DNA of 64,000 nt from Patescibacteria group bacterium (GCA_040388985.1 JAZKAU010000003.1:110896-174895), one strand, 5' to 3'; shown: positions 8,058 through 38,319, counted from the first letter of the stretch. The notes: a model not told the origin generated them from the letters alone. Numbers and translations are program-made.

Positions 8058-8061
8058 AGAT

Positions 8062-12887: not shown

Positions 12888-15800
12888 TTAGGATGCGGGG
12901 GAAGAGTCAGGAGTTGGTGCAGGGTCGGATGAGACTACGGGGGCAGGATCCGGTTCGGGCGCAGGAGGCGCATCGGATCCCCCGCCTACGGCAGGCGCGA
13001 GCACGCTCACGGTGCGCGTTGCTTCTGCAAAGCGGCCGCTGGCGTCAGTCGCGCGGTAGGTCAGCGTGTAATCCCCGGGGGTCTGCGCATTCACGCCGCC
13101 CGAGACCGCGATCGAGCTCGTGAGGTCGGTGCCGTCAGCGGCTGCCGCAGTCGCGCCCGGATCCGTCCAAGTCGCGCCTTGCGCGATCTGGATCGAAGAT
13201 CCTCCGGTAAGCTGTATGACCGGATCGGTACCATTCTGAGGTTGTGTCCCGGACGGAGGAGGAGTCTGCTGATCTCCCGAATTCGGCGGCGCGACCGACG
13301 GCTGCGAAGGCGGAACGTTTCCGACGCTCGCTATCTGACCCTCAGTCTGTACGAGGAAGTAATCGAAGGATACCGGGATATCCTGCGCCTTGGCGAGCGT
13401 TATCGTGAAGCTTCCCTGCTCCTTCTTCGAGATGTACCAGGAACCATCGATTGAGCTCGTGAAGGTGAGGAATATCTTGGAAGTCGGGAGAACGAGGCTG
13501 TTCTCGACCTTGAATTCGGTCTGGCCGTTCGGAATCACGACGGATCCGGCGCTTGCCGTGCCGTTGCTATCAGCACTCAGTACGAGCTGATGCGTGACGA
13601 TGGTCGTGAACTGCGCGATACCGTCATGCACGATGATACCGAGCTCCTCGAGCAGCTTCTCGAGTCCGGAAGCCGCGATGCTGAGCGGGCCGGTGGCGCT
13701 CGTACTCGTAGCGTTCTTAGCTGTCTCGAGAAGGGCGAGGCGCGACTCAAGGTCGTCGATACGCAGTGCGAAGGTGTCGAAGCGTGCGCTCAGCGCCTGT
13801 ACGCCAGCGACGCCGTAGCTTGCGAGCTTGTAGAGATCCACGTTCGTAGCGCTATCGGTAAGGACTTCGTCGGGCAGCGTCACGCTGATAGTCGTCGAGC
13901 CGTACGCGAACGTCGTGGCGTTCGCCGGCACGATGTAGCGGGCAGCCGATACGGTGCCGTCGGCGTTCACGCTCTGCGCGTGCAAGGTGCCTGCAGATAC
14001 GCCTTGCGCAATCTCCATGCTCGCAGCCGTCACGCTCGTAGCCACGAGCTCATGCGGGAGCTGCGCCGCCGCCTGCTCGGCGGTCGCCTTGCTCTCGACG
14101 CTATCCAGGCGGACCGCGAGGCTTGTGAAGGAACTCGCGAAGGAGTCAGTCCTGCCAGCGAGCTCCTTGATGGCGTTCACGCTCGCGGCGATGATAGGAC
14201 GGTCGGCAAGCGTGAGGAACCCCCGGCTGTCAGTTGCCACGGCTTCAGGAATGGCCGATTGCACGTTCTGGGCGCTGAAACCGGCATACTGGCCGTTCTG
14301 GTCGAGTCCGGACGTCGCATTCCAGTGGTAGAGGATAGGTGAAAGCTTCTCTATATCCGCGAGCCCGCGCGTAAAGCTACCACTGATGTTCTTCAGCCGC
14401 TCGTCGGAGGAAGCCGTTACATTTCCTAAGTTGTCGGTCGTGAGATTCGCGCCCGCGCTCGCAAGGCCGGCGAAGCGGACCGAGCCGGTGGTCGTGAGCT
14501 GTGCGGTAGGCGTACTGGTACCGATACCGAGATTACCGGCACCGGTGAGCGTAAGGAGGTTCGCGCCGGATGAGGACGCTACGGTGAAGGGATTCGTACC
14601 CGCCGTCCCGAGCACGGTGAGGGATCCTCCTGAGGATATGCCGCCCGTACCTACCAGCAGTCCGTTGCGTATATAGAGGTCACCGCCGATGTCCCCGTTC
14701 TCGAGCACGCTCAGGGTCTGCGTATTGGCGGCACCGAAGCTCGCCGAGGGCGCTTCCATGCCATCTATATCAAGGACCGTGAACTTCGAGCCAGCGTTCA
14801 CGTACGCATACTTTCCGGAGATGAATATGCCGCGCGGATTATTCAGGTTAGTCGAATCCTGCAGCGACGTGACGACCGTAGGCGCAGCGGGATTCGAGAT
14901 GTCGACGATCGTAAAGCGGTTAGTACCGTTCGCCGAGACGTACGCATAGCGGCCTGCGACATACATGTTCTTCGGCGCGTTCAGGTTCGTGTTATCCACG
15001 ATTCCGGCCACGAGAGTCGGGGCCGACGGCGTCGAGACATCGACGACGGCGAACGAGTTCGTATTCTGACCGAGCACGTATGCGTAGCGGCCGGACACGT
15101 AGACGTCCTTTGCGTTGAGCAGATACGTAGCATTGTTGAGGGATCCGACGACGACGGGAGCGGCTGGGTTCGAGACGTCGACGACCGTGAGTCTGGAGCC
15201 GGTCGCTCCCGCCGTGGTCACATACGCGTACTTTCCCGAGACATACACAGAGTCCGGGGTCAGGAGGTTGGTAGCATCTACTATCGAGCCTGCAATAACC
15301 GGCGTAGTCGGATTCGAGATGTCGACGACGACGAGCGCGTTCGCGCCGTTCGCGGCGACATACGCGTAGCGGCCGGAGATATACAGGCCGCGCGCAGAGT
15401 TAAGGAGCGAGTTAGTTACGGAGCCGACCACGGCAGGAGCGGCAGGATTCGAGACGTCGACGACCGTGAACCTATTCCCGCCGGTAGCGGTCACATATGC
15501 ATACTGGCCCGCAACGCGGACGGTGAATGCACCGTTCAAGTTGGTGGAGTCGACGACCGAGCCTACCACAACGGGGGCAGACGGGACTGCGATATCGATG
15601 ACGGACAGCTTGAAACCGCCAGCCGCGTCGACCGAGTACGCGTAGCGGCCGGAGATAGCCACGCCGATGCCGTTCGTACCGCTCGCTATGCTCACCGTGC
15701 CTTTCACGGTAGGGACTGTCGAGACGGTCTGGAGATAGCTGCCTCCAGTGAGCGCGAGGCGGGTTGAGGGGGTCGAGGTACCGATTCCGACGTTCCCGGA

Positions 15801-24800: not shown

Positions 24801-27800
24801 ATTGCCGCCAAGCGACAGGTTACCCGAGAGGATTCCGTTGCCTACGACGGTTAGCGCCTCCGCAGGCGTTGAGCTTCCGATCCCGAAGAATCCGTTGCCG
24901 TCGATATAGGCACGGCCGACGCCGCCGGTAGCGAATCCGATCAGATTAGAGCCTGCGTGATAGAGGCCGGTCGTAGCGTCCCCTGCGAACGAGAAGCCTG
25001 GCGCGCCTACCGAATCGCTTGCACGGAATTGCGGAGCGGTAACGGCGCCTCCGGTAAGCGCGAGATTCGTACCATTATAGGTAAGCGCCGAGCCCGACGT
25101 GATGCTCGTACCATTGAAGTACGTCACGCCGTTCGTCGTCTGGGACGCGGCATTGGTGCCTCCGTTCGCGATACCAAGCGTACCGGCAAGCGTAAGCGTG
25201 CCCGAAGTGGTGATGGGACCGCCGCTGAAGGTGAGGCCCGTGGTGCCTCCCGAAGCGTCTACGGAAGTTACCGTTCCGCTCGTGAATCCGAGCGTACTAG
25301 TACTCACCCACTGTATGCCCGTGCCGGTGGTTTGGAGGACTTGGCCGTTGGTTCCTGCATTGGTGTTTCCTGCGTACAGGGCTCCGGTGAGACCGAGGTC
25401 GCCTGCGATGGTGAGGGTGCGGCCGGGGGTGGTGGTAGCGATGCCGATCTTCCCTGTCGCTGAAAGGAAGATGGTCGATGTCGCTGTCAGTGTGTTCGTG
25501 CCGTTGTAGTACGGGAACTGACCGGCAGTACCCCCAACCGCAGTCACGGCCGAAGCGCCGTTACCCTGAAGCAGGCCGGAGAGGCTGGAGAAGATAGGAG
25601 CGTTAGTGAACGTCTGGGTGCCTCCCCAAGTATTACTGGTGGTGGTACCGGCATAGAGAGGTATGTTCAAGACGTTGGCGGAAAGAGTTGCGGCTCCGGT
25701 ACCGGTGGTGGTCAGGCTCGTGATGCGGTTTGTATACGCAGTCTGCCAGTCAGTCGTGCTTGCAGTCAGAGGGATGGTGTACCCGCTCGTGAGTGAGAAG
25801 ACGCCGGTGCCTGCGGTATACGTGAGGCCGGTGGCGGTTGAAGAGAAGAGGCCGCGGACCGTAGTGGAGTCGAGGGTAAGCGCACCACCGGTGTTCACGA
25901 GACCCGTACCGGTGAGATCGGTGAAGGACTCGGAGTTAATGCCCAGAGTAGTGGTGTAGAGAGAGGTGGAGGTGGCGTTCGCAAGCGTGGTGTTGCCAAG
26001 CGTGGTGGCACCTGAGACCGTCAGGTTAGTCGTCGACGCATTCCCCAATGTGGTCTGACCCGACACCGTGAGACTCGTGAGCGTACCCACGCTCGTGAGT
26101 GAGGAGTTCACGATGTTAGAGGCAAGCGTGGTGCCGGTCAGCGTTCCTGCAGGAGCCACCACCGCGTTCGTGGAGACTGCAGTGATGAGGCCCTTGCCGT
26201 TGACCGTGAAGGTCGGGATGGCGGTGGAAGAGCCGAAGGTGCCGGGGGTTCCGTTGACGGTGGCCAGAGTGAAGGTTGCGGAGCCCGGGCCAGATGCTGT
26301 TCCGTCACCGGTGAGTGCGGTGATGTAGTTGCCGGATGCTTGGAAGCCCAGGGTACTGGTGCTCACCCACTGTATGCCCGTGCCGGTGGTTTGGAGGACT
26401 TGGCCGTTTGTGCCTGCTGAGGTGTTGCCGGCAAAGAGGGCGCCGGTGAGACCGAGGTCGCCTGCGATGGTGAGGGTGCGGCCGGGGGTGGTGGTGGCGA
26501 TGCCGATGTTTCCGGTCGTATCAATTACCAACTGTGCCGTGAGTGCTCCCACCGGGCTAAATATCGCCTTTCCGTTGTGCTGAAGATATGTGTTGCCGTC
26601 AGAGAACGGATAGATATTGAACTGGTTCGCGCCGGTATTGTTGTACGCAAAGGTTGCCGCAGGAATCCCGTTATTCGTACTCTGAACGCTCAGGATAGAG
26701 CTCGGTGACGACGTACCGATGCCGATGTTACCCGTCGATATCGTTGCGCCCGTGCCTGAAAGGCCGGTTCCGTATATGAGGTTACCGATGTTGAGCTGAT
26801 TGCTTGCCGTCGAGCTTGCAACAGCGACATCGTTACCGATTGAGATATTATTTGAACCGGTCGTCACTTGATTCAGTGATGCGGTAATAGTGCTGTTGCC
26901 AAGGAATACGTTGCGCGCACCTGTCGTGATACTGCGACCAGACTGGTAACCGATGAGGGTATTGAAGTCGGAACCGGTATCAAGGCTCATACCAGCCTGG
27001 AAACCAACGAAAGCACCGCCCTGGTTTGAGTATCCTACAGCTCCAAGTCCTGCGCGCGCGCCAATCGCTACCGTAGTCGTTGCTGAAATATTATTCTGTA
27101 GCGCAGATGAGCCGATAGCAGTCGCACTGATGCCGGTAGAGCTCAGCAGAGCCGCTGAACCGATAGCCGTATTGCCTGAGGAAACGGTGTTTGCAAAGAG
27201 CGCTTCGTATCCAATACCGACATTGTTGTTGCCAGTCGTATTCGCAAGGAGTGCGAGGGATCCAATACCGACGTTAGTTACGCCCGTCGTATTACTCTGC
27301 AGGGCTTGCGAACCGATAGCCGTGTTTGCATTCCCCGAAGTATTGGCGCGAAGCGCGAAGAAACCGATTGCGGTGTTATCGCTAGACGATGTCGCAGTAA
27401 AGAGCGCCTGGTGTCCGAGAGCAGTGATATGGGTTGCAGTCGTTATTGAGGCGCCGGCAGAAATACCCACGAGGAGGTTATTAAGCGTCGACGAAGCAGT
27501 AAGAATCGTCGAACCGGCCTGCTTATAGCCGCTGTACTGGTCGGTGTTTATAAATCCTGCAACATCGAGCTTATAGAGAGGGCTTGTAGTCCCAATGCCG
27601 ACGTTGCCGCCGGGAAGGACAGTTACGTAGGATGAGAGGCCGCTCGTAGTTCCCTTATTCGCAGCACCCTGTCCATATATCGTGAATGCGTTGGCAGCAT
27701 TGAACACAAGCCCCGTTCCACCGGATGTCGCAATGGTGGACGTATAGTTACCACCCGGTCCTTCAACGAGACTGACGGCACTCGAACCTGCAGAATAAAT

Positions 27801-33800: not shown

Positions 33801-36800
33801 GGCGGTGCCGTCACCGGTGAGCGCGGTGATGTAGTTGCCCTGAGCCTGGTACTGAGGGATGTTGAGAACATTTGCAGTGAGGGTGGCGGCTCCAGAGGTA
33901 CCGGTGGTGGTGAGTGAGGTGATCCTGTTCTGGTATGCGGTCTCCCAGTTAGTGGTGGAGGCGGTGAGCGGGATGGTGTAGCCGCTCGTGAGGCTGAAGA
34001 TGCCCGTGGAATTGTCATACGTGAGGCCGGTGGCAGTCGAGGAGAAGAGGCCGCGTGCGGTTGTGCTGAAGTCGCTGATGGTGCTCGCGAGCTGCGTACC
34101 GGTGTGATTCGCGCGGTTGAGGTAATACGAACCGTCCTGGCCGTCGAGGAGGTCGGCGTTGAAGAGCGAGCCGGAGCCTGAGAAGGAGGAGGTTGAGACG
34201 GAGAGCGCCCCACCAACGTTCGAAAGTCCGCTGCCGAGCAAGCTGGTGAAGGTTGAGCCGCCGACATTAATGCCTGACGTGAATGTCTGCAGTGCGCTCC
34301 ATGTGTTCACGCTCGTCGTGCTCACGATGAGCGGGATATTGAGCACGTTGCCGATAAGCGTGGCGAGACCACCTGAGCCGTTGGTGGTAAGGCTCGTGAT
34401 CCGATTCTGATACGCTGTCTCCCAGTTAGTAGTCGAAGCAGTGAGCGGGATGGTGTATCCGGGAGTCAGGCTGAATACTCCCGTAGAGTTGCTATAGGTA
34501 AGGCCCGTCGCTATCGAGGACAAGAGACCTCGTGCGGTCGAGGAGAAGTCGCTGATGGTACTCGCAAGCTGGGTTCCGGTGTGATTCGCGCGGTTCAGGT
34601 AATACGAACCGTCCTGGCCGTCGAGGAGAGCTGCATCGCCGCCGGAGAAGGACGTGGTAGCCAGACTGAATACGCCGGTCGAATTGTCATAGCTGATCGG
34701 TCCGGTTGCGCTCAGCAATCCGCGCAGGTAGGAATCCGAGGCTCCGTTCAGCGTGTTGCCGCTCCACGAGAGATTCGTTCCAGCCGTGATGCGCGATGAT
34801 GGCGTCTGGTAGAACGAGTCCCAGTTAGTAGTCGAAGCAGCGAGCGGGATGGTGTAGCCGGGCGTGAGAGAGAAGACGCCGGTGGAACTTGCGTACGAGA
34901 GGCCGGTGGCGGTTGAGGAAAGCGCACTGCGTGCGCGCGCGTCGGTGTAGTACAGATTGGAACCTTCCGCGAGATTAGTCGTGGACTTGGTAGTAAGCCA
35001 GGTATCTGCAGAAGTAGTAGAGAATGAATTGCCGAGGAAGTATGTGGAGTCGAAGCCATCGAGAAGGTCGGCGTTGAAGCCTGAGCCGCTTCCGGAGAAG
35101 GAGGTAGTGGAGACCGACAGAGCTCCGCCGGTATTCACGAGACCGAAGCCCGTGAGGTCGGTGAAGTAATCGCTTCCGATTCCCAGGATCGTCGTAAAGA
35201 GAGAGGTAGTCGTAGCCGAATCTGCAGTAAGATTCGTCACCGCTGCGTCGGTACCCGTGATATGCGTGGCGAACAGGTTGGTGCTCGTAGCATTCGTACT
35301 CGTCGCGTTGGTGAAGGTCGCATTAGTCGCCGTCAGATCCGCGATCACGGCCGTGGTGATATTCGCGAGCGTCGCCGTGAAGGAACTGAGTACGGCATTC
35401 AGGATAGTGCCGGTCGTCGCGAAGAAGTTCGTGGTGGTCGCATTCGTAGTCGTCGTGTTCCCGAATATCGCATTCAGCGCCGAGAGCGTATCGAAGCTGC
35501 CGGAAGTAGCGTGCAAGAGCGATGCGAAGAGATTCGTAGACGTCGAATTCGTGAAATTCGAATTAGTGCCCGAGAGGTTCGTGATGGCGCCATTCGTGCT
35601 CGCGAGATTCGGAAAAGTGGACGTCGCCGTCGTCGAAGCTGCCGTGAAATAGGGCGCGCTGACCGCGCTGCCGGAAGAAAGATTCGAGACCGTAAGCGTT
35701 CCTGCGGTAAGGGTGCCGCTTACCGTGAGATCACCCGTGACGCTCGTCGTTGCGAGAGACGATGCGCCTGCAGCAAGCGTTCCGGTCGTCGTTGAACCGA
35801 TGGTCGCCGTGTCTGCGGTCAGGTTCGTGAACCGAGCATTACCGCTCTGGATATCGACATTCGTGAGCGTCGCGCCGTCGCTTGATACGCCGCCCCCTGA
35901 ACTGCTTCCGCCTCCTCCCCCGCCGCCACTTGGACGATTACGTAGCGTCGCGTCGATGCTCTCCGTCACGAAGGGGCGCACGATAGCGAGAACCGCTTCT
36001 TCCGAAAGCGCACCGATGACGCTCTGCGGGAAGAGATTCTGAACGATATTCTGGATGACCGTCGTGTGCGATACAGAACTCACAGACGTCGAAGCCGCAT
36101 ATGACGCCGTATCCGCAGGAGTGAACGCTACGGTATTGGTCTGACCGAACGGTACGACAGACAGGCCTGGCGCCAGGCTCGGCGGCGTTACCGCGCCCGC
36201 GATCGCACGGATACCGGTATCGATGAGCGAGCGGGCGAGCCGGGATCCGCCGATGAGCAGATGTGCGAGCGCTCGCTCGAGCGAAGCGGGCACTGACGTG
36301 AGTGCGCTCGCTGCGAGCTGGCTCGATGCCGCGTACCCGCTCCCTGAAGCCTGTACCGCGCTTGCAAGAGCGCCAGCTCCTACATGCGCCCTGGGCGACA
36401 CTACGGCGACAGTCACATCTGCTGCTTCATAGAGATTTGCGCCTGCTTCGCCACCATGCTCGATGAGCGCGAGATACTGCGTGCCGATGTTCTGAACCGG
36501 TTCAAGAAGCGCCTGACCGCTCCGGACTTGAGCTGTCGTGACTGAACCTACAAAGGCGAGCGATGAATCCGTCCACGTCTGCGCAAAAGAATCATTAGCT
36601 GCAGCAAGCATGGACGGCGCGTCCGCTGCAGTGGCGCCCACGGCCTGTCCTGCTACATACACGTAGCCGAGCAGTTCGCCCGCGACGCGCGGCGACGCGT
36701 CAGTCCATGCGTAGACTGCCTGCGCGTACGCAGCCGTAAGCGAGTCAGCGTAACGCGGCATCGACACCACGGTGTCGCGCGCAGAAGCTGCAGTCGCAAG

Positions 36801-37664
36801 AGCACTATCACCCGTTCCCTGTACCGTAGCGAGATATATATTCCCGATATTCTTGCTGAGCGCGAGTGCATCCGTTCCGATCTCTACATATGCTTTCGCC
36901 ACTGTTCGCGCGCTGTCCCGAAGTGCGCGCAGTGGATGCATCGCGATCGCCTGCAGAGACGTTATGCGCGCACGCGCGATGTCAGCGATGCTCGCGCCTG
37001 AAGCGGTAGCGACATCGACTGCGGCGGGATATGCGTTCGTATAGGTGCCGGTCGCGAACGCGACATCATGCGAGAGTACGCCAGCGTCCGGTACGACGAG
37101 CAGAGGAGCAGCATTCTGCGCAACGCGCGTATCACTCGGTCGGAACGATGATGGCAACTCTGAAAGATGCTGCACCAGAAGCGCTACTCGCAGCGCCGTG
37201 TCAGGAAGGTTCGAGAGCGCCTCTTGTACCTGCGGAGACACCGACGCATACGCACTGCCTGCGACGAGCACGAGCGTGACTGCGGCGGCGGCAAGTGGCG
37301 CATGTACGCGCGTGCGCATCGGGCTTAAGACGGGAACGCGTTGCGGTGCTGCGCCGTTCGGGGTCCGTTCTTCACGCACTAACTTGACTGTCGGCGTAGA
37401 TAGTTTCTGCTGAGCTAAGAGATATTCCTGCGAACGCGCCGCGGCTATCTGTGCAGTAAGTTCGATCTTGCGCTGCCGCTGGTCTTGAATGAATTTCTCG
37501 AGCGAATCCCTGTCAACGAGCCAGGCGCGTCCGACCTGTGCACCTTGTATCTTTTTCGAACGACAGAGGCGTGCGAGATAATCCGGATTGTATCCGGAAA
37601 TGGTTGATGCTTCTTTCGTTGAGACTAACGAAGAGGAGAGGATGTTTTTAGAAAGATCAGGCAT
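12888..37664 (-). CDS. Giant (8258 aa) membrane-anchored, phage-tail-fibre-like repeat protein with LVIVD propeller, S74 intramolecular-chaperone domain and Ig-like C-terminus
   Basis: A single uninterrupted ORF of 24,777 nt with a verified ATG start. It carries an N-terminal HTH-like domain and one TM helix (aa 122-140). It has hundreds of T/S/G/A-rich modules, including FNADLLDGQDS.YYL and LTGDGTATGPGSATFTLATVN..TFTVNAKGLITA, both reminiscent of phage tail-fibre repeats. It also has recurring GNVGIGTTSP motifs. Near the C-terminus it has 6-7 LVIVD repeats (YAYV...VVDVSNPAAP), then SDERLKNISG...LSPILYHW...GFSAQNVQSAIPEAV (Peptidase_S74-like), a coiled coil, and an Ig-like DUF5011-like domain. 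Codon composition is native high GC. Confidence 0.85.
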   Translation of the reverse strand: MPDLSKNILSSSLVSTKEASTISGYNPDYLARLCRSKKIQGAQVGRAWLVDRDSLEKFIQDQRQRKIELTAQIAAARSQEYLLAQQKLSTPTVKLVREERTPNGAAPQRVPVLSPMRTRVHAPLAAAAVTLVLVAGSAYASVSPQVQEALSNLPDTALRVALLVQHLSELPSSFRPSDTRVAQNAAPLLVVPDAGVLSHDVAFATGTYTNAYPAAVDVATASGASIADIARARITSLQAIAMHPLRALRDSARTVAKAYVEIGTDALALSKNIGNIYLATVQGTGDSALATAASARDTVVSMPRYADSLTAAYAQAVYAWTDASPRVAGELLGYVYVAGQAVGATAADAPSMLAAANDSFAQTWTDSSLAFVGSVTTAQVRSGQALLEPVQNIGTQYLALIEHGGEAGANLYEAADVTVAVVSPRAHVGAGALASAVQASGSGYAASSQLAASALTSVPASLERALAHLLIGGSRLARSLIDTGIRAIAGAVTPPSLAPGLSVVPFGQTNTVAFTPADTASYAASTSVSSVSHTTVIQNIVQNLFPQSVIGALSEEAVLAIVRPFVTESIDATLRNRPSGGGGGGGSSSGGGVSSDGATLTNVDIQSGNARFTNLTADTATIGSTTTGTLAAGASSLATTSVTGDLTVSGTLTAGTLTVSNLSSGSAVSAPYFTAASTTATSTFPNLASTNGAITNLSGTNSNFTNSTSTNLFASLLHATSGSFDTLSALNAIFGNTTTTNATTTNFFATTGTILNAVLSSFTATLANITTAVIADLTATNATFTNATSTNATSTNLFATHITGTDAAVTNLTADSATTTSLFTTILGIGSDYFTDLTGFGLVNTGGALSVSTTSFSGSGSGFNADLLDGFDSTYFLGNSFSTTSADTWLTTKSTTNLAEGSNLYYTDARARSALSSTATGLSYASSTGVFSLTPGYTIPLAASTTNWDSFYQTPSSRITAGTNLSWSGNTLNGASDSYLRGLLSATGPISYDNSTGVFSLATTSFSGGDAALLDGQDGSYYLNRANHTGTQLASTISDFSSTARGLLSSIATGLTYSNSTGVFSLTPGYTIPLTASTTNWETAYQNRITSLTTNGSGGLATLIGNVLNIPLIVSTTSVNTWSALQTFTSGINVGGSTFTSLLGSGLSNVGGALSVSTSSFSGSGSLFNADLLDGQDGSYYLNRANHTGTQLASTISDFSTTARGLFSSTATGLTYDNSTGIFSLTSGYTIPLTASTTNWETAYQNRITSLTTTGTSGAATLTANVLNIPQYQAQGNYITALTGDGTATGPGSAAFTLATVNGNVGTFNNVTVNGKGLVTAASNVSYLTGNQTITLTGDVTGSGTTSIATTLATVNGTPGTFGSSTAIPTFTVNGKGLITAVSTNAVVAPAGTLTGTTLASNVVSSSLTSVGTLTSLTVSGNTTLANATSTNLGVTNFTLGGSTFTSLLGSGLLNPGGALTLDSTTVRGLFSSTATGLTYTAGTGVFSLTSGYTIPLTASTTNWDSFYQTPSTRITAGTGLTWTGNTLNVSTSSLALDTTYFKQNGNSFGTTAVLGTIDNNALQLKTNNATRLTIDTSGNVGVGTSTPQSLFSVSGDIFTTTGVGIGTTTLSGHGLGISLAANSQRGILVMNFLNGTNSGPVITAQSAAGVGITLGSVGTAYTANTVGVTANTAYLQANQTNLRIINTSASAGRNISFYGFGATPSEMARFDAATGFFGVGTTTPSAQLSASSTSSGTAFLIQQNGSGPAGVFLGGNIGIATTTPGRTLTIAGDLGLTGALFAGNTSAGTNGQVLQTTGTGIQWVSTSTLGFQASGNYITALTGDGTATGPGSATFTLATVNATPGSFGSSTAIPTFTVNAKGLITAVSTNAVVAPAGTLTGTTLASNVVNSSLTSVGTLTSLTVSGQTTLGNASTTNLTIGSLSGLLYGNNGTVGAATVSSPLAFSAGTLSVAPGFTIPLTASTTNWDSFYQTPSTRITAGTGLTWTGNTLNVSTSSLAIDTTYFKQGGNAFGTTARFGTTDVNPLNIITSNATVATFLTNGNFGIGTTSPPERLTVAGNAAISGSVSAASLTTTGAANVNSLSIGSLSGFLKATAGTVGTALIDLSTDVTSTLPSANGGTGFASYSPGDILYADNSGVLAKLPVGSSGQVLKVQAGFPAWGIDQTIGAGGSGDGVFATSTNLIYPIDTSNVLLVGTNATSTTNSIFEVSGQEYISTRLGIATTSPSAALSVGGNALISGTGTFGQLIDNGLTANTLTYANGAKQLSSVTLGTGLTLTTGTLSVATSSFSGSGSGFNADLLDGQDSTYYLDRANHTGTQLASTISDFSTTARGLFSSTATGLTYTAGTGVFSLTSGYTIPLTASTTDWQTAYANRITSLTTNGSGGLATLTGNVLNIPLIVSTTSANSWSALQTFSGGITTAGTVTLGSLTGVLHASSGVVGASNVLLGSEVSGVLPVTNGGTGWSTITSGAVLYGNGSSALATTTPGSNGQVLALVAGIPTWVATTTAGTGLTYSAGSFNVNTSQNITTLSNLATAGFVKTDSSGVLSVDTNAYLTGNQTITLTGDVTGSGTTSIATTLATVNGTPGTFGSSTAIPTFTVNGKGLITAVSTNAVVAPAGTLTGTTLASNVVNSSLTSVGTLTSLTVSGNTSLANATSTNLGVTNFTLGGSTFTSLLGTGLTNSGGVLTVSTSSLALDTTYFKQGGNSFGATATLGTIDANQLNLITANATRLSVTSGGNVGVGTSTPSDKLDVAGNLRISSASPLISAVNPVNGSGLFGFSRKDDVSSASLQIAAFGGIGFTPGLGGSSISPTSTSSALWISTTGNVGIATTTPNYLLTVGVPSAINVDQGISFSRSAVAQDAIRYGIRSNSGGLYRGSITGTASNGTQTEIMSFLTGGQVGIGSTSPFARLTVKGLGNTSATTNFQTTNSLDTALFTILDNGNVGIGTTTPSQKLDVAGNIALSTGGFLYGDTINPSLSLSNAGGSILSYTSNNSITVGNGVIRFNTSGAQQMTINSSGNIGIGTTTPFAKLTLVGDLSVSGGGIYDGNSTRGTNGQVLQTTGTGIQWVATSTLGFQASGNYITALTGDGTASGPGSAAFTLATVNTNVGIFGGASSVPTFTVNGKGLITAVSTNAVVAPAGTLSGTTLASNVVSSSLTSVGTLTALTVSGATSLSTFTATSGTTTNATSTNFGVTNFTLGGSTFTSLLGTGLSNVGGTLTVSTSSLALDTTYFKQGGNSFGATATLGTIDSNQLNLITGNATRLSITSGGNVGIGTTSPLSILHIYSAGSSAVSLVEGPGGNYTSTIATSGGTGLVFNAANAFTIYGQGAANKGTTSGLSSYVTVLPGGNVGIGTTSPLYKLDVAGFINTDQYSGYKQAGSTILTASSTLNNLLVGISAGASITTATHITALGHQALFTATSSSDNTAIGFFALRANTSGNANTAIGSQALQSNTTGVTNVGIGSLALLANTTGNNNVGIGYEALFANTVSSGNTAIGSAALLSSTGISATAIGSSALQNNISATTTVAIGARAGLGAVGYSNQGGAFVGFQAGMSLDTGSDFNTLIGYQSGRSITTGARNVFLGNSTITASLNQVTTGSNNISIGNDVAVASSTASNQLNIGNLIYGTGLSGTGATISTGNIGIGTSSPSSILSVQSTNNGIPAATFAYNNTGANQFNIYPFSDGNTYLQHNGKAIFSPVGALTAQLVIDTTGNIGIATTTPGRTLTIAGDLGLTGALFAGNTSAGTNGQVLQTTGTGIQWVSTSTLGFQASGNYITALTGDGTASGPGSATFTLATVNGTPGTFGSSTAIPTFTVNGKGLITAVSTNAVVAPAGTLTGTTLASNIVNSSLTSVGTLTSLTVSGQTTLGNASTTNLTVSGATTLGNTTLANATSTSLYTTTLGINSESFTDLTGTGLVNTGGALTLDSTTVRGLFSSTATGLTYTAGTGVFSLTSGYTIPLTASTTDWQTAYTNRITSLTTTGTGAATLSANVLNIPLYAGTTTSNTWGGTQTFTNAPIFSSLSGLLQGNGASAVTAVGGTAGQFPYYNGTNTLTATSTIFLSATGKIGIATTTPGRTLTIAGDLGLTGALYAGNTNAGTNGQVLQTTGTGIQWVSTSTLGFTSGTVTSVDASGGTTGLTFSGGPITTSGTLTLAGTLGIANGGTNAASQTTNGVTYFNGTSITSGSALTYNGTNLALTGGAVTAPQFRASDSVGAPGFSFAGDATTGLYHAGSNLIGFATGGVGRAYIDGNGFFGIGSSTPAEALTVVGNGILSGNLSLGGNISATGNLTAANATTTSLYATTLGVGSDYLTDLTGFGLVNTGGALSVSTTSFSGSGSGFNADLLDGQDGTYYLNRANHTGTQLAATISDFATTARGLFSSTATGLTYTAGTGVFSLTAGYTIPLTASTTNWEAAYQNRITSLTTTGTSGAATLTANVLNIPQYQAQGNYITALTGDGTATGPGSATFTLATVNATPGSFGSSTAIPTFTVNAKGLITAAGSVAVVAPAGTLTGTTLASNVVNSSLTSVGTLTALTVSGATTLGNLTAALATTTSLTTTNFTLGGSTFTSLLGTGLTNTAGVLSVSTSSLALDTTYFKQGGNSFGATATLGTIDSNQLNLITGNTTRLSVTSAGNVGIGTTSPGTTLHVYAATPVIRIDGPASAAKTLSFAKDNISYWNIYNPASSGDLRFYDQQGVGDLLTLKTGGNVGIGTTTPAAKLDINNGSVSTVSGALRIEGGISAVNAGHSIDWYAGSANAGAAANAYARIAGVTDAAGSTGNLAFYTNSGLGASASTEKLRITGAGNVGIGTSSPISLLSIAGATGSNQIAIGNTSAAVVNGDTVAKIGFYTSDASSLINREVANINVVADGADYAGIAAPTALTFLTQNSSGALAERLRITAAGNVGIGTTTPFAKLTVVGDLSISGGGIYDNNATRGTTGQVLQTTGTGIQWVSTSTLGFAGATTGNSLLYGNGTGGFSNATVGTGLSFAAGTLSVATTSNALGLDGTYFKQNGNSFGATAVLGTIDSNLLQFKTNNTTRLTIDTSGNVGIGTTSPTSNLEVYRASTGASSFKVDGWTDPTAPMVYFASKAAEVGRSLFRIASDVNGTPTNAFEVLDNGNVGIGTTTPGSLLTIAGSQAGITIDRTANDSFLQLSSSGVSGGQFRYFAPNVVSIADVNGTDKVVFNTSSGNVGIGTTSPSAALHVYGSAQALAQIQSTDTFSYLMLADSGSTAANGQGIGSNGNNLIFRANGGTRATLTSAGNFGIGTTTPFAKLTVVGDLSVSGGGIYDGNSTRGTNGQVLQTTGTGIQWVSTSTLGFAAAGNYITALTGDGTASGPGSATFTLATVNGTPGTFGSSTAIPTFTVNGKGLITAVSTNAVVAPAGTLTGTTLASNIVNSSLTSVGTLTSLTVSGQTTLGNASTTNLTVSGQTTLGNTTLTSATSTNLGVTNFTLGGSTFTSLLGSGLSNVGGVLTATISTSSLALDTTYFKQDGNSFGATATLGTNDGNALVFETNNTEALRINTARQLVSSIGSSASVPSYTWTGDLSTGIGHPTANVIAFSTGSVERARIDGNGYLGIGTTTASEALTVGGNGIIAGTLLVSSTSLTTGLATFSSGINVNGESFTDLTGTGLLNTGGALTLDSSTVRGLFSSTATGLTYTSGTGVFSLTSGYNIPLTASTTNWETAYQNRITSATLPLSISSNTISIANALADGSTKGAASFNANDFDASSGNISIDYANGQAAASTSKGFLTAADWITFNGKQASGNYITALTGDGTATGPGSAAFTLATVNGNVGTFNNVTVNGKGLVTAASNVSYLTGNQTITLTGDVTGSGTTSIATTLATVNGTPGTFGSSTAIPTFTVNAKGLITAVSTNAVVAPAGTLTGTTLASNVVTSSLTSVGTLTALTVSGATTLGNLTAALATTTSLTTTNFTLGGSTFTSLLGTGLTNSGGVLTVSTSSLALDTNYFKQGGNSFGATAVLGTNDSNLLQFKTNNATRLTIDTSGNVGVGTSTPGSKLIVQGSGTGNVAIGEWGGGSTYGAISLSGSLATGSANFYSAGTSLFINRPTGGALDFRMNDVSQMYISSAGLVGIGTTTPADKLNVSAGNLRLSAIGVGQGIYADNGAGSGMFSLTRQSTGATGDLSVSAFGGIGLTGGNTAYATGATSYQAYLTSTGNFGIGTTTPTNKLDVNGNIATVIGSGGTLTLYDAVAGRNNLIKLGADASGAYINSTFSAGGTANLRLQTAGTDKVTITQAGLVGIGTTTPSTQLHIDSGTASVLPTISLSALGASVQNFGRASAYFTGSAATDLGIRYSSNLFIGATSNAAMVLTAAGNVGIATTTPGRTLTVAGDIGLTGALYAGNTSAGTNGQVLQTTGTGIQWVATSTLGFQASGNYITALTGDVTATGPGSAAATLATVNATPGSFGSSTAIPVFTVNAKGLITAVSTSTVVAPAGTLTGTTLASNVVNSSLTSVGTLTALTVSGQTTLGNASTTNLTVSGATTLGTLTASSATTTNEATTNFTLGGSTFTSLLGTGLTNTAGVLTVSTSSLALDTTYFKQGGNSFGATATLGTIDSNQLNLITGNTTRLSITSGGNVGVGTSTPSARLAVTGTAGTGDIFAIASSTEARLLTVTSTGNVGIGVIAPAALLNIGGAKSAASWTTTGLNLAVDASTLTDTSGSGTIATRAASSFGRPTLVASSPVTLTDASTLYIANAPLASTNTTITNAWALHVAAGNVKLGGNLVIGNGSNSTSVALLSSSNSTVFNTSSMTYGAAFEVTNTGIGGATGFDGNSQVSNAGTVTNAYGAIASVRILGGGTITNGYGVVGRTPTITSGTVTNAYGLYAQAQKITGVTNGYGVYAAGTSDINYFAGSVGIGTTTPATTLQVTGLGGTNPFRVSSSTNASMFEITQAGAALFNSQAGTSGQVLQSFGAGAPPQWVATSTLGFQASGNYITALTGDGTATGPGSATFTLATVNATPGSFGSSTAIPSFTVNAKGLITAVSTNAVVAPAGTLTGTTLAANVVNSSLTSVGTLTSLTVSGQTSLGNASTTNLTVSGATTLGTLTASSATTTNEATTNFTLGGSTFTSLLGSGLSNVGGALSVSTTSLGLAPATTGSSLLYGNGSGGFSNATVSSPLTFTGGALGINNAVADGATKGAATFLAADFNDNGSGLISLDYANGQAAASTTKGFLTAADWITFNNKQALLTGTTGQLGYFSATNTFTATSSIFLDTTGNFGVGTTSPFARLSVKGVGTTTAANFQLTNSSNTPLLTVLDSGNVGIGTSTPSTRLALTGGSYLQTVSTVPTVKGTVSIASGTNGIGVAISGRYAYSVDAAGGFKLSVIDIAVPSAPVVVGSVVDSTNLNGAFTVRVAGQYAYVTATGGNRFTVVDVSNPAAPAVVGSVTNSLLNSARGLYISGRYAYVAANGANALVVVDISNPTTPVIAGSIVDATNLLTPDSVYVSGKYAYVTTAGATGSRLTVVDVSNPAAPVVVGSLNNATYLLNAKDVYVSGRYAYVLGQNTNSFAVVDVSTPSAPTLVAGIVDNTNLNAPKNMYVAGRYAYVSANGTNRFTIVDISNPAAPTVVTSLQDSTNLNNPRGIFISGKYAYVNAGSKFTVLDIDGMEAPSASFGAANTQTLSVLENGDIGGDLYIRNGLLVGTGGISSGGSLTVLGTAGTNPFTVASSSGANLLTLTGAGNLGIGTSTPTAQLTTTGSVRFAGLASAGANLTTDNLGNVTASSDERLKNISGSFTRGLADIEKLSPILYHWNATSGLDQNGQYAGFSAQNVQSAIPEAVATDSRGFLTLADRPIIAASVNAIKELAGRTDSFASSFTSLAVRLDSVESKATAEQAAAQLPHELVATSVTAASMEIAQGVSAGTLHAQSVNADGTVSAARYIVPANATTFAYGSTTISVTLPDEVLTDSATNVDLYKLASYGVAGVQALSARFDTFALRIDDLESRLALLETAKNATSTSATGPLSIAASGLEKLLEELGIIVHDGIAQFTTIVTHQLVLSADSNGTASAGSVVIPNGQTEFKVENSLVLPTSKIFLTFTSSIDGSWYISKKEQGSFTITLAKAQDIPVSFDYFLVQTEGQIASVGNVPPSQPSVAPPNSGDQQTPPPSGTQPQNGTDPVIQLTGGSSIQIAQGATWTDPGATAAAADGTDLTSSIAVSGGVNAQTPGDYTLTYRATDASGRFAEATRTVSVLAPAVGGGSDAPPAPEPDPAPVVSSDPAPTPDSSPAS
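12999..13226 (-). other. Ig-like (BIG/DUF5011-like) domain near the C-terminus of the giant protein
   Basis: DPVIQLTGGSSIQIAQGATWTDPGATAAAADGTDLTSSIAVSGGVNAQTPGDYTLTYRATDASGRFAEATRTVSV shows a beta-sandwich pattern and is followed by a Pro-rich tail. Confidence 0.5.
14076..14408 (-). other. Peptidase S74 / intramolecular chaperone auto-processing domain (endosialidase and T5 tail-fibre type) inside the giant ORF
   Basis: SDERLKNISGSFTRGLADIEKLSPILYHWNATSGLDQNGQYAGFSAQNVQSAIPEAVATDSRGFLTLADRPIIAASVNAIKELAGR matches the remembered S74 consensus (SD.RLK.NI ... L.P..Y.y ... GfiAQevq...PE.V ... AIkEL). The serine of SDERLK is aa 7753. Confidence 0.65.
14745..15665 (-). other. LVIVD-repeat beta-propeller block (about 6-7 blades) in the giant protein
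   Basis: Repeated YAYV(x)...FTVVDVSNPAAPxVVGS units about 45 aa apart are characteristic of PF08309 LVIVD repeats. Confidence 0.65.
37245..37301 (-). other. Single predicted TM helix / signal anchor of the giant protein (aa about 122-140, PLAAAAVTLVLVAGSAYASV)
   Basis: Hydrophobic stretch preceded by the basic RTRVH segment. Confidence 0.5.
37485..37664 (-). other. N-terminal excisionase/MerR-type HTH-like domain (HTH_17-like) of the giant protein
   Basis: LVSTKEASTISGYNPDYLARLCRSKKIQGAQVGRAWLV matches the remembered pattern ls.kEaa..lgvs..t.yrl...g.ip..k.Gr.wri. It is paralogous to the N-terminus of the upstream 38357..39262 gene. Confidence 0.5.
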
Positions 37665-38277
37665 GTCGGATATCCGAATTACCTAAATAATAGCTTGCTA
37701 TTTCGTAATGCTCTCTATCGCGCGTGGGGATAAGATTCTGAAAAATTCTATGCCATGAACGTTCGCAAAAAATCTTCACTCGTTGAAGGTTCATGCAGAA
37801 AATGAAAGGAGTTCGATCGCGCATAGTTGCCGGAATTTCGGTTTGCGTGCAACTTTGATCTTCTTGAACGGACAACTTGAGAGAACCTTTGCTGCTTTAT
37901 TCCGTCTGATCAGGACTACAGACCTTCCTAACGAGCGAGAAACCTACCTATGGCAGAAGTTCCGGGGGTGATTCGAGCAACGCGTACTGACGACCGCTAC
38001 CGAAAAAGTAATACCATAGTCAAGAATATAGCTTATAGATACTAGCGATATCGGAAATACAACGGCTGAGGCAATACATATCTTGGGTTCGTGGGTGAAA
38101 TGATGGCGACAAGAAAGGTTACGGAGGAGAAGCCGGAAAGATTCGAATACAAGTAAGTTGTGATTATGTTTGTTTGCGCTGACTCTTTTTTGGACCCGAT
38201 AGTGATGCTCTGATTCCTGCTATAAATGCTGAAGATCATTAGATATTCCTTTGAGCGAGAACAAACGCTAAAGATTA

Positions 38278-38309: not shown

Positions 38310-38319
38310 TAATTATTGT

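Follow-up and report, generated by a model that had tools for sequence, protein, structure and literature searches.

A candidate giant fibre adhesin of Parcubacteria built from modules related to phage tail fibres and Bdellovibrio adhesive trimers

Within the window, the 64-kb stretch of DNA that was analysed as a whole, one gene on the minus strand on balance probably encodes a giant membrane-rooted homotrimeric fibre adhesin, matured by a Peptidase_S74 (S74) domain and carried on the cell surface of a member of the Parcubacteria/Paceibacterota (CPR). As the sequence-only reading had stated, its 24.8-kb frame runs uninterrupted to a single terminal stop, and its 8258 codons contain none of the frame-disrupting errors that would have spoken against one intact gene. 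The start codon agrees with the N-termini of orthologues (MPDLSKN...).

The gene, its locus and its family

12888..37664 (−): giant open reading frame, 8258 amino acids plus stop (translation)
38357..39262 (−): upstream partner gene, about 301 amino acids (translation)

It is very improbable that the frame is an assembly chimera or that its repeats were miscounted through collapse or expansion. In four related MAGs a contig ends inside the gene, which is therefore hard to assemble; the best internal DNA repeat pairs, in a comparison within the frame, are 92–95% identical over 340–495 nt, one 300-nt stretch is identical between repeat copies, and the repeat copy number could be mis-assembled. 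Against an artefact stand the unbroken frame, the collinearity of both ends with complete orthologues, the matching synteny on both flanks of one of these (L144), and the divergence of most repeats, which makes gross collapse unlikely. As most public copies of the gene are broken at contig ends, the full-length 8258-aa copy is a useful reference.

The earlier supposition that such a protein is undescribed was too strong. It is not a one-off: complete orthologues of 3647–6467 aa are already present in public Parcubacteria MAGs, labelled "hypothetical protein" by NCBI, and a characterised analogue exists in the mosaic adhesive trimer (MAT) fibres of Bdellovibrio (PMC10769870). By sequence comparison the giant gene is a member of a conserved, unstudied family, the parcubacterial HTH-anchored giant fibre family, which we define by four of its proteins (P0172–P0175). 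The window protein fits the family at its N-terminus (HTH head, AYAS hydrophobic segment, Ala-rich ectodomain) and at its C-terminus (SSDERLK S74, helices, β-sandwich, Ig-like domain, Pro-rich tail). The best-scoring N-terminal relatives are 31–41% identical, with E-values down to 1e-79. Family members share both ends and differ in a mosaic middle.

The gene lies in a shared housekeeping locus of the order SecA, Obg, GatB, small HTH-TM gene, giant gene, GAPDH, RPE and transketolase. The part from Obg to the giant gene is common to the window and to loci L001/L002, L005, L006 and L144, the last of which holds a complete orthologue of 4848 aa with matching genes on either side. The small partner gene occupies the corresponding position in all five orthologous loci, and its sequence is strongly conserved in L001/L002, where this was checked. 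In its product a paralogous HTH head, which shares 40% identity with that of the giant (E 4e-11), is followed by an acidic linker and a basic stretch, then by a TM segment of 20 aa and a short tail. The relatives bear the names Parcubacteria, Paceibacterota or Kaiserbacteria and the window carries CPR-style housekeeping genes, which suits the earlier guess of a small-genome episymbiont; the bacterium itself is a tiny, probably symbiotic member of the Parcubacteria. Nothing on S74 or tail-fibre-like proteins in Parcubacteria or Patescibacteria came out of the literature searches.

Domain organisation from head to C-terminal cassette

37476..37625 (−): HTH_17 (MerR/excisionase-type) head, aa 14–63 (Pfam)
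37239..37301 (−): hydrophobic segment, aa 122–142, PLAAAAVTLVLVAGSAYAS (top Kyte-Doolittle window; family-conserved motif)
35928..37238 (−): Ala-rich, family-defining ectodomain or 'stalk', aa 143–579 (family conservation)
35889..35927 (−): Gly/Ser linker, aa 580–592 (read from the sequence)

The HTH-like head proposed earlier is an HTH_17 domain (31.7 bits against a cut-off of 27, E 1.8e-7) that contains the sole cysteine of the protein, aa 34. Among 68 relatives of the head, 64 match HTH_17 in Pfam, and the only Pfam matches in the set are to HTH_17 and an AbiEi_4-type HTH, with no partner domain. A word-index search with the head profile returned only proteins of 54–142 aa, many of them on very short contigs, whose architecture is uninformative.

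The segment at aa ~122–142 is the single strongest hydrophobic segment of the protein, flanked by a charge of +4 on its N side and −1 on its C side. The earlier claim of a single TM helix stands as far as there is one such segment, but the hydrophobic core is short (~13–15 residues) and is followed by a conserved AYA-S, so that a cleavable internal signal peptide is possible. Judged from its sequence, the segment could serve as a signal-anchor or as an internal signal peptide. In the latter case signal peptidase may cut the chain from the head, a point against rooting in the membrane.

The stalk was recognised correctly: 19.8% of the residues at aa 142–580 are alanine. It is conserved in P0001, P0026, P0121 and P0172–P0175, and matches no Pfam family and no PDB sequence at E≤1. 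A query of head plus stalk retrieved 207 cluster representatives at E≤1e-10, many of which match the head and hydrophobic segment only. A Gly-rich linker follows at the corresponding place in most aligned relatives.

15705..35888 (−): fibre shaft, aa 593–7320 (motif counts; PHROG, PDB and IMG/VR matches)
Shaft module A: LLDG/TIPLTAST
Shaft module B: GNYITALTGD...FTVNAKGLITA...APAGTLTGTTL, 12 copies
Shaft module C: YFKQGGNSFG, 9 copies
Shaft module D: GNVGIGTTxP units, 29 copies
Shaft module E: GQVLQTTGTGIQWV, 6 copies
26775..27551 (−): block of NTAIG-type repeats, aa ~3372–3630 (PHROG matches)

The shaft consists of N/T-rich repeats (aa ~600–830) followed by about ten supermodules in which the modules recur in the order B-F-C-D(n)-E. 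Motif counts over the whole protein gave 5 copies of [NAD/DAA]LLDG.D..Y[FY]L, 12 copies each of LTGD..TA.G and FTVN.KGLITA, and 29 of the GNVGIGT type. Copies of module B start at aa 1282, 1336, 1822, 2565, 3089, 3784, 4460, 5335, 5781, 5835, 6409 and 6968. The extracellular part has no cysteine and is rich in T, G, S and A. A monomer AF2 model of one supermodule, based on a 25-sequence alignment, was of low confidence (pLDDT 59.6), a point against the fibre reading.

The relation of these modules to phage tail fibres, which had been read from their signatures, is supported. The shaft matches the PHROG tail-fibre families phrog_9942 and phrog_18345. At least 399 viral contigs of IMG/VR contain module B, with identities of up to 85%, and at least 115 contain module A; one viral protein with module B is a PHROG tail or minor-tail protein. 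The specific phage fibre repeat PF03406, by contrast, was matched neither by 950-aa tiles at E≤0.1 nor by isolated modules at E≤5, and no Pfam family was found for the central modules on tiles or in isolation. In a cultured-phage collection, module B gave only three short matches, to Pelagibacter phage HTVC008M and Limnohabitans phage DC31. The D units align with the Bdellovibrio MAT protein Bd2133 (8ond, E 8.6e-9) and with 8oml (E 1.1e-6), and the capping-loop motif GNVGIGTxxPxxKL lines up between the D units and the MAT structures. In the MAT superfamily, the trimeric β-helix shaft units have capping loops of the type V-G-G/N-π-x-x-P-x-x-x-L. The NTAIG block, which matches PHROG families (phrog_6002, E 1.7e-28; the tail spike phrog_4636, 2e-20; phrog_23837) and none in Pfam, appears by sequence to resemble the β-roll of tail spikes and virion proteins.

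14715..15692 (−): seven-bladed LVIVD β-propeller, aa ~7325–7650 (Pfam LVIVD)
14409..14714 (−): last β-helix unit, with capping-loop motif GNLGIGTSTPTAQL, aa 7651–7752 (family conservation)
14238..14408 (−): Peptidase_S74 chaperone/protease domain, aa 7753–7809 (Pfam)
13716..14210 (−): helical region past S74, aa ~7819–7983 (low-pLDDT AF2 helices; family-conserved)
13347..13556 (−): small conserved β-sandwich, aa 8037–8106 (AF2 pLDDT 72–83; family-conserved)
13002..13217 (−): bacterial surface Ig-like domain, aa 8150–8221 (Pfam)

Three of the four C-terminal domains named by the sequence-only reading were recovered by profile searches. The LVIVD propeller matches PF08309 with 141.5 bits (E 4.7e-42; second match 1.1e-35) as tandem repeats, and seven G[RKQ]YAY blades can be placed at aa 7339–7617 with a spacing of ~46 aa; in NCBIfam only sub-threshold choice_anch_B matches were seen on it. 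Among five family members compared, the propeller is found elsewhere only in the orthologue P0173, and a propeller within a trimeric fibre is unusual, which counts against the fibre reading. The profile of the last β-helix unit matches MAT chains 8ojn and 8ond.

S74 domains carry the motif SDxxxK and cleave N-terminal to its serine (PMC10769870). In the giant protein, PF13884 is matched over model positions 1–57 of 58 (37.8 bits against a cut-off of 22), the catalytic S-D-x-x-x-K motif with its Ser-Lys dyad is intact (S7753-D-E-R-L-K7758), and SSDERLK is invariant in five family members. PHROG tail-fibre C-termini and a putative tail fibre in the PDB (8jov) match the same region. The predicted cut between S7752 and S7753 would free 506 aa. 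Such a fragment, in a further point against the fibre reading, is far longer than typical S74 chaperones, the one released from T5 pb1 measuring 133 aa (PMC4690869). The C-terminus, 55–64% identical across ~570 aa, is the best-conserved part of the family, so the fragment hints at a role beyond folding.

The coiled coil claimed past S74 was not confirmed: two long helices (aa 7819–7867 and 7944–7983, DSSP) appear in a low-confidence AF2 model, together with a weak DUF7310 match, and a trimeric coiled coil at this place is plausible on that model. The β-sandwich matched no family and gave marginal fold matches in a Foldseek search of the PDB. The Ig-like domain is secure in Pfam (Bact_surface_Ig-like, E 4.6e-22), in PDB sequence matches (BT_2262, chitinase-60 Ig domains, 2kpn) and in structure (AF2 pLDDT 82–89; Foldseek 5fq3, E 2.7e-7); a Pro-rich tail ending ...PAS closes the chain. 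AF2 modelling of the C-terminal 567 aa was confident only at the β-sandwich and the Ig-like domain, the low score of the S74-region model (pLDDT 44.9) being another point against the fibre reading, and the Ig-like domain was accordingly the one part that Foldseek identified.

The proposed fibre and its alternatives

In the model that we prefer, the N-terminal HTH_17 domain would remain in the cytoplasm, and the hydrophobic segment would serve both for targeting to Sec and as the membrane root of the chain. The ~440-aa Ala-rich ectodomain would then lie at the cell envelope, and the Thr/Ser/Gly-rich modules, ~7100 residues with homology to β-helix units of phage tail fibres and of Bdellovibrio MAT proteins, would form an intertwined homotrimeric shaft. 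Folding would start at the C-terminus, nucleated by the S74 intramolecular chaperone, which would cut itself off after S7752 and leave with the conserved C-terminal cassette of ~500 aa. The distal tip would then be formed by the last β-helix unit and three LVIVD propellers, likely ligand-binding elements. The MAT fibre Bd3182, whose mature chain ends at residue 781, has been modelled at ~550 Å (PMC10769870); scaled from that model, the giant fibre would be roughly 0.5 μm long. Conserved ends, a mosaic middle and amplified supermodules fit an adhesin with fixed anchoring and maturation parts and diversifying shaft and binding parts. Its most likely use is in recognising and tethering host or partner cells.

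The same parts allow other readings. The fibre could be released or bound to the wall, with the hydrophobic segment acting as a cleavable internal signal peptide that signal peptidase I cuts after AYA141; an HTH-plus-membrane stub of ~141 aa, resembling the neighbouring small HTH-TM protein, would be left behind, and the fibre would be held on the envelope non-covalently by the Ala-rich domain or shed into the matrix. We regard this as rather unlikely. The n-h-c layout (basic MRTRVH, the short hydrophobic core, conserved AG[ST]AY[AG]S) speaks for it, the adjoining gene does encode a head-plus-TM protein, and many head relatives are themselves short head-plus-TM proteins, 13 of 116 having ≤60 aa past the hydrophobic segment, some of them maybe fragments. 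However, a folded domain of 120 aa before a cleavable signal peptide is unusual, the AxA might be a mere interface motif, and in a crude scan with a loose pattern, [AGS]-x-[YFAG]-[AG]-[SAD] followed the hydrophobic segment in only 30 of the 116 relatives. A phage origin, in which the gene would be part of a prophage or a phage-derived tail-fibre gene serving a virion or tailocin rather than the cell surface, is extremely improbable despite the matches of shaft modules and S74 C-terminus to tail-fibre families of phages and to viral contigs. Neither the HTH-TM head nor the stalk occurs in IMG/VR; this absence, the housekeeping content of the window, the synteny conserved across genomes and the existence of complete family members argue for a cellular, vertically inherited gene; a chain of 8258 aa with a membrane-targeting segment is unlike virion fibres, and a prophage was rejected since the 64-kb window has no phage genes. 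Two further candidates were also set aside, a polymorphic toxin (no toxin domain) and a trimeric autotransporter of the YadA type (no anchor barrel; YadA_anchor, YadA_stalk and Hep_Hag matched no tile in Pfam).

A further reading concerns the region upstream of the start codon.

37665..37692 (−): leader TATTATTTAGGTAATTCGGATATCCGAC abutting the ATG, conserved in 5 orthologous loci
37666-37677 (−): 12-bp palindrome TCGGATATCCGA within the leader
37725..37733 (−): box TTATCCCCA (TTATCCACA in most relatives), ~60–70 nt upstream of the ATG (alignment A6)

The leader is identical to that of L144 at 28 of 28 positions and unique in the window, where none would be expected by chance. In 17 metagenome contigs a near-invariant 31-nt leader directly precedes an HTH-headed frame, which was established from the translated sequence for 16 of them, the remaining contig ending 2 codons past the ATG. 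The box TTATCCCCA is invariant in alignment A6 and equals the consensus sequence of the E. coli DnaA box; each of the 20 distinct leaders has it as TTATCC(A/C)CA, at one of two spacings ~10 bp apart. No copy of the leader precedes the small HTH-TM gene, a sigma-70 promoter scan around the start codon found nothing adjoining it, and the 690-nt intergenic region holds no conserved small ORF; over the whole window, Rfam gave no family and the tRNA scan none. A palindromic leader at this place would be compatible with a regulatory role.

A distinctly improbable reading makes the giant protein a membrane-tethered regulator whose HTH head would bind DNA, for example its own gene's palindromic leader, and in which engagement of the fibre, trimerisation or proteolysis would alter transcription, by analogy with the one-component regulators ToxR and CadC and with MyRF. 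In its fullest form, also distinctly improbable, this would be a contact-sensing transcription factor, a half-micron 'antenna' coupled through the membrane to a leader-binding HTH_17 head that would act alone or with the neighbouring HTH-TM paralogue. HTH_17 is kept throughout the family, the paralogous gene adjoins, the leader with its TCGG-N4-CCGA palindrome abuts the ATG of long HTH-headed frames in 5 MAG loci and the 17 contigs despite protein divergence, and the two spacings of the upstream box differ by about one helical turn. Yet a promoter or a translation-initiation element would account for the leader equally well, and its palindrome stem shows no variation, which speaks neither for a DNA role nor for an RNA role. 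S74 cleavage is extracellular and therefore would not release the head, a trimeric protein has no obvious match to a two-fold-symmetric site, and HTH domains of membrane proteins can instead bind protein, as in RodZ. A weaker version would take the leader and the TTATCC(A/C)CA box as a dedicated, lineage-wide regulatory switch for Parcubacteria giant-fibre genes.

Known systems and significance for CPR bacteria

The closest parallel to the proposed fibre is offered by the MAT fibres of Bdellovibrio bacteriovorus, such as Bd3182 and Bd2133 (Caulton et al. 2024, PMC10769870; 8ond, 8oml, 8ojn). Both are encoded by the cell and not by a virion, and each pairs an end conserved for retention with an otherwise mosaic chain. 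Like the MAT fibres, the giant is predicted to be built from β-helix units with GNVGIGTxxPxxKL-type capping loops, the sequences being directly similar. MAT fibres, too, serve a bacterium obliged to recognise other cells. Many MAT proteins end in a self-cleaved S74 with SDxxxK (PMC10769870), and of the C-terminal S74 or adhesive tip by which MATs are recognised the giant has the S74, with the LVIVD propeller just before it. MAT proteins, however, measure ~600–1100 aa, start with a signal peptide and a conserved β-rich N-terminal domain of ~130 aa, and belong to a diderm predator (PMC10769870). The giant has no MAT-type N-terminus and is set apart by description through its HTH_17 head, hydrophobic segment and Ala-rich domain, as well as through its 8258 aa, its post-cleavage cassette of helices, β-sandwich and Ig-like domain, its propeller and its CPR host.

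Trimeric phage fibres and spikes that terminate in S74, such as the L-shaped fibre pb1 of T5 and the K1F endosialidase (PMC4690869), likewise carry the chaperone toward the C-terminus with a catalytic Ser-Lys motif, and environmental phage tail proteins share the shaft modules. Those S74 fibres are virion parts of ~1000–1400 aa with no membrane-targeting segment and a released chaperone of ~130 aa, whereas the giant, at six times their length, is encoded in the chromosome at a locus whose synteny extends across genomes.

An N-terminal cytoplasmic HTH, a single membrane segment and an extracytoplasmic domain form a layout that the giant, by its predicted topology, would share with ToxR and RodZ, although the head here is HTH_17, as opposed to the OmpR-type HTH of ToxR and the XRE-type HTH of RodZ. 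MyRF combines a DNA-binding domain, S74 and a membrane segment in one chain, its S74 lying on the side of the DNA-binding domain, which it releases; in the giant, S74 and the HTH head would be on opposite sides of the membrane. The link of MyRF to S74 has been noted together with the MAT fibres (PMC10769870).

Very large predicted surface proteins of ultra-small or predatory bacteria, proposed to act in host contact, are also known from Vampirococcus lugosii of the CPR (PMC8080830) and from Omnitrophota giant genes (bioRxiv 10.1101/2023.11.21.568195). The Vampirococcus giant membrane proteins, proposed as host-attachment factors, are 1392–4163 aa long and contain WD40, PKD, integrin and fibronectin-type domains (PMC8080830). 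The main texts of both reports make no mention of S74, tail fibres or an HTH head.

The giant fibre, predicted to be longer than the cell, is a concrete, cross-lineage candidate for host capture in CPR bacteria. Much of bacterial diversity belongs to the CPR/Patescibacteria, whose cultivated members are attached to other cells; apart from the type IV pili of Saccharibacteria, few of the molecules with which they find and hold their hosts are known. The building blocks of the fibre are common to phage receptor-binding proteins and Bdellovibrio prey-recognition fibres. The locus carries the MAT concept beyond a diderm predator, into ultra-small monoderm-like bacteria, and suggests that environmental phages and CPR cells share modules. 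It also defines two domains that are widespread yet lack a Pfam family, namely module B and the Ala-rich anchor domain. Tests can be built on the predicted S7753/K7758 cleavage and the AYA-S site, and likewise on the LVIVD tip and the conserved leader. If the contact-sensor reading were true, gene expression would respond in turn to the capture of a host or to maturation of the fibre.

The giant protein and its family

The giant gene (12888 to 37664, minus strand) is a single open reading frame of 8258 codons whose sole stop lies at its end, which agrees with the continuity claimed for it by the sequence-only reading. We scanned its product against Pfam in ten overlapping 950-aa tiles at curated cut-offs, which four families exceed.

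Pfam families in the giant protein
HTH_17: aa 14-63, 31.7 bits (cut-off 27)
LVIVD repeats: E 4.7e-42
Peptidase_S74: aa 7753-7809, 37.8 bits (cut-off 22)
Bact_surface_Ig-like: aa 8150-8221, E 4.6e-22

The HTH-like head, LVIVD propeller, self-cleaving S74 chaperone domain and Ig-like domain of the sequence-only reading thus all score above threshold, and the only named family missing is the phage fibre repeat PF03406 (0 matches on 950-aa tiles or isolated modules at E<=5). The protein is rich in Thr (16.8%), Gly (13.1%), Ser (11.7%) and Ala (11.7%), and its sole Cys sits within the HTH head.

Searched exhaustively with phmmer, aa 1-560 matched 1412 cluster representatives at E<=1e-3, including 207 at E<=1e-10. 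The best matches include four complete relatives, and the two for which NCBI names exist are both called "hypothetical protein", Parcubacteria.

Complete relatives of the giant protein
P0172: 6467 aa, MDB5245384.1
P0173: 4848 aa, MDB5190051.1
P0174: 5796 aa
P0175: 3647 aa

The four share an N-terminal plan of an HTH head, a basic linker and a hydrophobic segment with AY[AG]S at its end, followed by an Ala-rich ectodomain of about 440-500 aa with conserved motifs and, in most, a Gly-rich linker. N/T-rich repeats, a variable shaft and a last GNxGIGT unit make up the middle, which varies in length and module content between family members, and the C-terminal plan comprises SSDERLK (S74), helices, a small β-sandwich, a Pro-rich linker, the Ig-like domain and a Pro-rich tail. 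The C-terminal ~570 aa of family members are 55-64% identical to those of the window protein, and the best-scoring relatives of its N-terminus are 31-41% identical. Judged by sequence, the window protein belongs to a parcubacterial family that is uncharacterised but already has members in the databases; we found no description of this family in the literature on S74 or tail-fibre-like proteins of Parcubacteria or Patescibacteria. When GTDB species genomes were scanned with a C-terminal profile, about nine Parcubacteria-type MAGs proved to have the full cassette; matches to the S74 part alone extend to many further CPR genomes and to some Saprospiraceae, Methylocystis and others. In one MAG, JAZKFG01 (Patescibacteria DC_HB_02), this S74 type occurs at no fewer than seven separate loci (L016, L017, L020, L022, L024, L025, L026), which suggests a multi-gene fibre repertoire, akin to that of the mosaic adhesive trimer (MAT) proteins of Bdellovibrio bacteriovorus, in some CPR bacteria.

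The strongest hydrophobic window of the entire protein lies at aa ~122-142, where a single transmembrane helix had been proposed. The 22 residues before it include four basic and no acidic ones, and its C-terminal flank is net acidic. As the hydrophobic core is short (~13-15 residues), with basic residues before it and a conserved AYA|S after it, the segment resembles a cleavable signal peptide no less than a stable anchor; the proposed segment itself stands, and both assignments fit it equally. Among 146 N-termini closely related to that of the giant protein, 130 have the HTH motif; a strong hydrophobic segment follows it in 116 of these 130, and 23 of the 116 proteins continue for 1000 aa or more past that segment. 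In 68 of these relatives, Pfam detects HTH-type families and no others.

Phage-fibre modules in the shaft and the S74 cassette

In the shaft, a supermodule, B-F-C-D(n)-E, recurs about ten times. The motifs reported earlier are all present, the LLDG type (module A) in 5 copies, the LTGD and FTVN types (both in module B) in 12 each and the GNVGIGT type (module D) in 29, and the central modules belong to no Pfam family, either on 950-aa tiles or in isolation. Their proposed kinship with phage tail fibres is borne out by PHROG families, by structures in the PDB and, for modules A and B, by IMG/VR contigs. GNVGIGT units match the tail-fibre families phrog_9942 and phrog_18345 (E down to 1.9e-20), an NTAIG block at aa ~3372-3630 matches tail-spike and virion-protein families (E 1.7e-28), and the S74 region is matched by tail-fibre C-terminal families. 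In a PDB sequence search, units match the MAT proteins Bd2133 (8ond, E 8.6e-9) and 8oml/8ojn, whose motifs GNLGLGTAAPTSALHV and GNVGIGATAPTAKLEV align to units of the window protein.

Module B (~90 aa; GNYITALTGD...FTVNAKGLITA...APAGTLTGTTL) spans aa 1282-7100 in its 12 copies; P0173 has 3 copies and the other three compared members have none. Further carriers are L064-L143 and P0002-P0121 (loci and proteins from elsewhere); local identities among the matches listed lie mostly at 55-85%. The supermodule that contains it has 1282 protein matches, most of them 600-1900 aa long and many without a signal peptide and with phage-fibre-like N-termini. In IMG/VR, module B is present on no fewer than 399 contigs, with identities of up to 85%, and module A on no fewer than 115. 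In one of these contigs the protein carrying module B is assigned to the PHROG category 'tail protein/minor tail protein', and in a second the carrier lies inside a phage-like gene array. Among cultured phages, module B was found only in Pelagibacter phage HTVC008M, where the match is annotated 'baseplate wedge initiator', and in Limnohabitans phage DC31. Module B is a tail-fibre domain of wide occurrence that no Pfam family covers. IMG/VR contains no relative of the HTH head with its hydrophobic segment. The picture is one of a putative anchor and a maturation cassette, both cellular, that bracket a shaft of modules common to environmental phage fibres.

Residues S7753-D-E-R-L-K7758 agree with the S74 catalytic motif and are invariant in the family. 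In the MAT protein Bd3182 the cut falls N-terminal to the catalytic Ser (PMC10769870); by analogy, self-cleavage of the window protein would release 506 residues, compared with 133 in T5 pb1 (PMC4690869). An AlphaFold2 model of this released part, computed from a five-sequence family alignment, has a low overall pLDDT of 44.9 and contains two low-confidence long helices (aa 7819-7867 and 7944-7983), a confident small β-sandwich (aa 8037-8106) and a confident Ig-like domain that matches the BT2262, Big_3 and chitinase-60 Ig domains. The tip left after cleavage would consist of the last β-helix unit and the seven-bladed LVIVD propeller, which is thus the best candidate for the binding element; among the five compared family members, only the window protein and P0173 have LVIVD repeats.

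MAT proteins are surface-displayed trimeric fibres (Caulton et al., PMC10769870); 13 of the 21 have S74, with the SDxxxK motif, at their C-terminal end and cleave themselves, and the motif loops of MAT proteins cap a β-helix (PMC10769870). The window protein shares homologous shaft units and S74 with them and is predicted to work in a MAT-like manner. However, it lacks the N-terminal feature that defines MAT proteins and is 8-10 times longer, and for these reasons we did not classify it as one. Giant proteins of CPR (PMC8080830) and Omnitrophota (bioRxiv 10.1101/2023.11.21.568195) have domain sets that differ from that of the window protein.

The conserved locus and its leader element

The 64-kb window is ordinary chromosomal DNA, in which we found no phage genes, tRNAs or Rfam families.

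Features of the window
37665-37733, minus strand: leader elements, also at L001, L005, L006, L144 and L224-L240 (loci on other contigs)
38357-39262, minus strand: small HTH-TM gene 5′ of the giant gene; its encoded head and that of the giant protein share 40% identity (E 4e-11)
Other genes: L25, class I aldolase, PfkB, split transketolase, RPE, GAPDH
Other genes, beyond the giant and small HTH-TM genes: GatB, Obg, RNase J, SecA, MurB
Also encoded: Wzy_C/TPR protein, polysaccharide biosynthesis genes

Relatives of the giant protein carry the names Candidatus Paceibacterota, Parcubacteria group, Kaiserbacteria or Nomurabacteria, which places the source organism, by sequence relationship, in the Parcubacteria group of CPR/Patescibacteria and fits the earlier guess of an episymbiotic or small-genome bacterium. 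Transketolase is encoded by separate N-terminal and C-terminal genes (6541-8919, minus strand) adjoining RPE, GAPDH and class I aldolase, a neighbourhood of CPR-style reduced central metabolism that supports this placement.

The order Obg-GatB-small HTH-TM gene-giant gene is kept in L001/L002, L005 and L006, in each of which the giant gene is broken off at a contig end. L144 reads SecA-Obg-GatB-small-giant (4848 aa)-...-GAPDH-RpiB-RPE-transketolase and agrees with the window on both sides. At all five orthologous loci a gene lies immediately upstream of the giant gene, and its sequence is strongly conserved in L001/L002, the loci where it was compared. Past the paralogous head, the product of the window's small HTH-TM gene runs through an acidic linker and a proper TM segment of 20 residues to a short tail. 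Strong hairpins at 38273-38314 and 39330-39365 lie 3′ of the small gene and of GatB, respectively. The former, with the stem TTTCTCGTCTCG..AGACAAGAAA just past the stop codon, is kept across orthologous loci and looks like a terminator, which suggests that the giant gene has a transcript to itself.

Several other features of these loci were recorded. Just downstream of the giant gene, a 233-aa ORF (12143-12844, plus strand) has a weak, sub-threshold match to IS200-like Y1 transposases (E 7.7e-4); in L144 this place is taken by a 92-aa gene together with a pilin-like N_methyl gene, so the site 3′ of the giant gene is variable. In L005, from a related MAG, a separate 1405-aa protein (560-4777, plus strand) with Pect-lyase_RHGA_epim and Peptidase_S74 domains is encoded just upstream of Obg and is a second, tailspike-like S74 protein near the giant-gene locus. 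A 1.3-kb stretch of the window without long ORFs contains a 76-aa Lys/Ala-rich (histone H1-like) ORF (49258-49488, minus strand), with the only other TTATCCACA box in the window ~100 nt upstream (49584-49592, minus strand); a 135-aa ORF without an assigned identity lies on the opposite strand (49686-50093).

Most of the 690-nt region 5′ of the giant gene cannot be aligned from one orthologous locus to another, except for its last ~75 nt, which are conserved. Directly adjoining the ATG is TATTATTTAGGTAATTCGGATATCCGAC, identical at 28 of 28 positions in L144, whereas the protein N-termini are only ~40% identical. The leader contains the perfect palindrome TCGGATATCCGA (TCGG-N4-CCGA), the arms of which are invariant in all leaders and thus fit a DNA operator and an RNA hairpin equally. 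There is a single copy of the full element in the window, against 0 expected by chance. The near-invariant 31-nt leader is present at five MAG loci and, searched as a degenerate pattern, in 17 metagenome contigs. In 16 of the 17 it is directly followed by an ORF with the same kind of HTH head that reaches the end of the available DNA; six of these ORFs have 1089-2678 aa, the rest are shortened by short contigs, and the 17th contig stops two codons past the ATG. TTATCC(A/C)CA lies upstream in 20 of 20 distinct leaders, in two spacing classes ~10 bp apart, and most of them also have a (T/C)GCCGAAAT-like block. No σ70 consensus promoter was detected in the leader region by scanning, and no Shine-Dalgarno-like sequence by inspection.

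Proposed mechanism and its alternatives

With moderate confidence, we propose that the most likely mechanism is that of an exported, S74-matured trimeric surface fibre of ~0.5 μm, a length scaled from the ~550 Å model of Bd3182; each step beyond domain identity is drawn by homology with MAT proteins and phage fibres. Sec would export the giant chain and the N-terminal module would hold it at the membrane or envelope; the S74 cassette would then nucleate trimer folding in the C-to-N direction. Self-cleavage would follow trimer folding, and the resulting fibre, roughly 0.5 μm long, would be displayed, its propeller-bearing tip and mosaic shaft binding to structures on the surface of host or partner cells.

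The conserved AYA|S bears on an alternative in which signal peptidase frees the fibre from its head, which we consider unlikely. A regulatory or sensing role for the head is less probable still; the most novel form of this reading builds on the leader element next to the ATG. That the giant ORF is an assembly artefact is very improbable. One 300-nt stretch is identical between repeats of the gene, the repeat copy number being that of the assembly, but the DNA repeats have otherwise diverged (best pairs 92-95% identity over 340-495 nt), and a chimeric ORF is unlikely because both protein ends are collinear with complete orthologues and the same genes flank either side. Least credible of all is a prophage fibre; the shaft modules match phage tail-fibre families, but the surroundings are chromosomal and the head has no relative in IMG/VR.

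Adhesins that resemble tail fibres, are encoded by the cell and mature through S74 are, as a general idea, nothing new. What should be noteworthy to specialists in CPR or phage receptor-binding proteins is the anchor, the size, the conserved locus and the leader element of this proposed surface fibre, together with two widespread domains that have no Pfam family.
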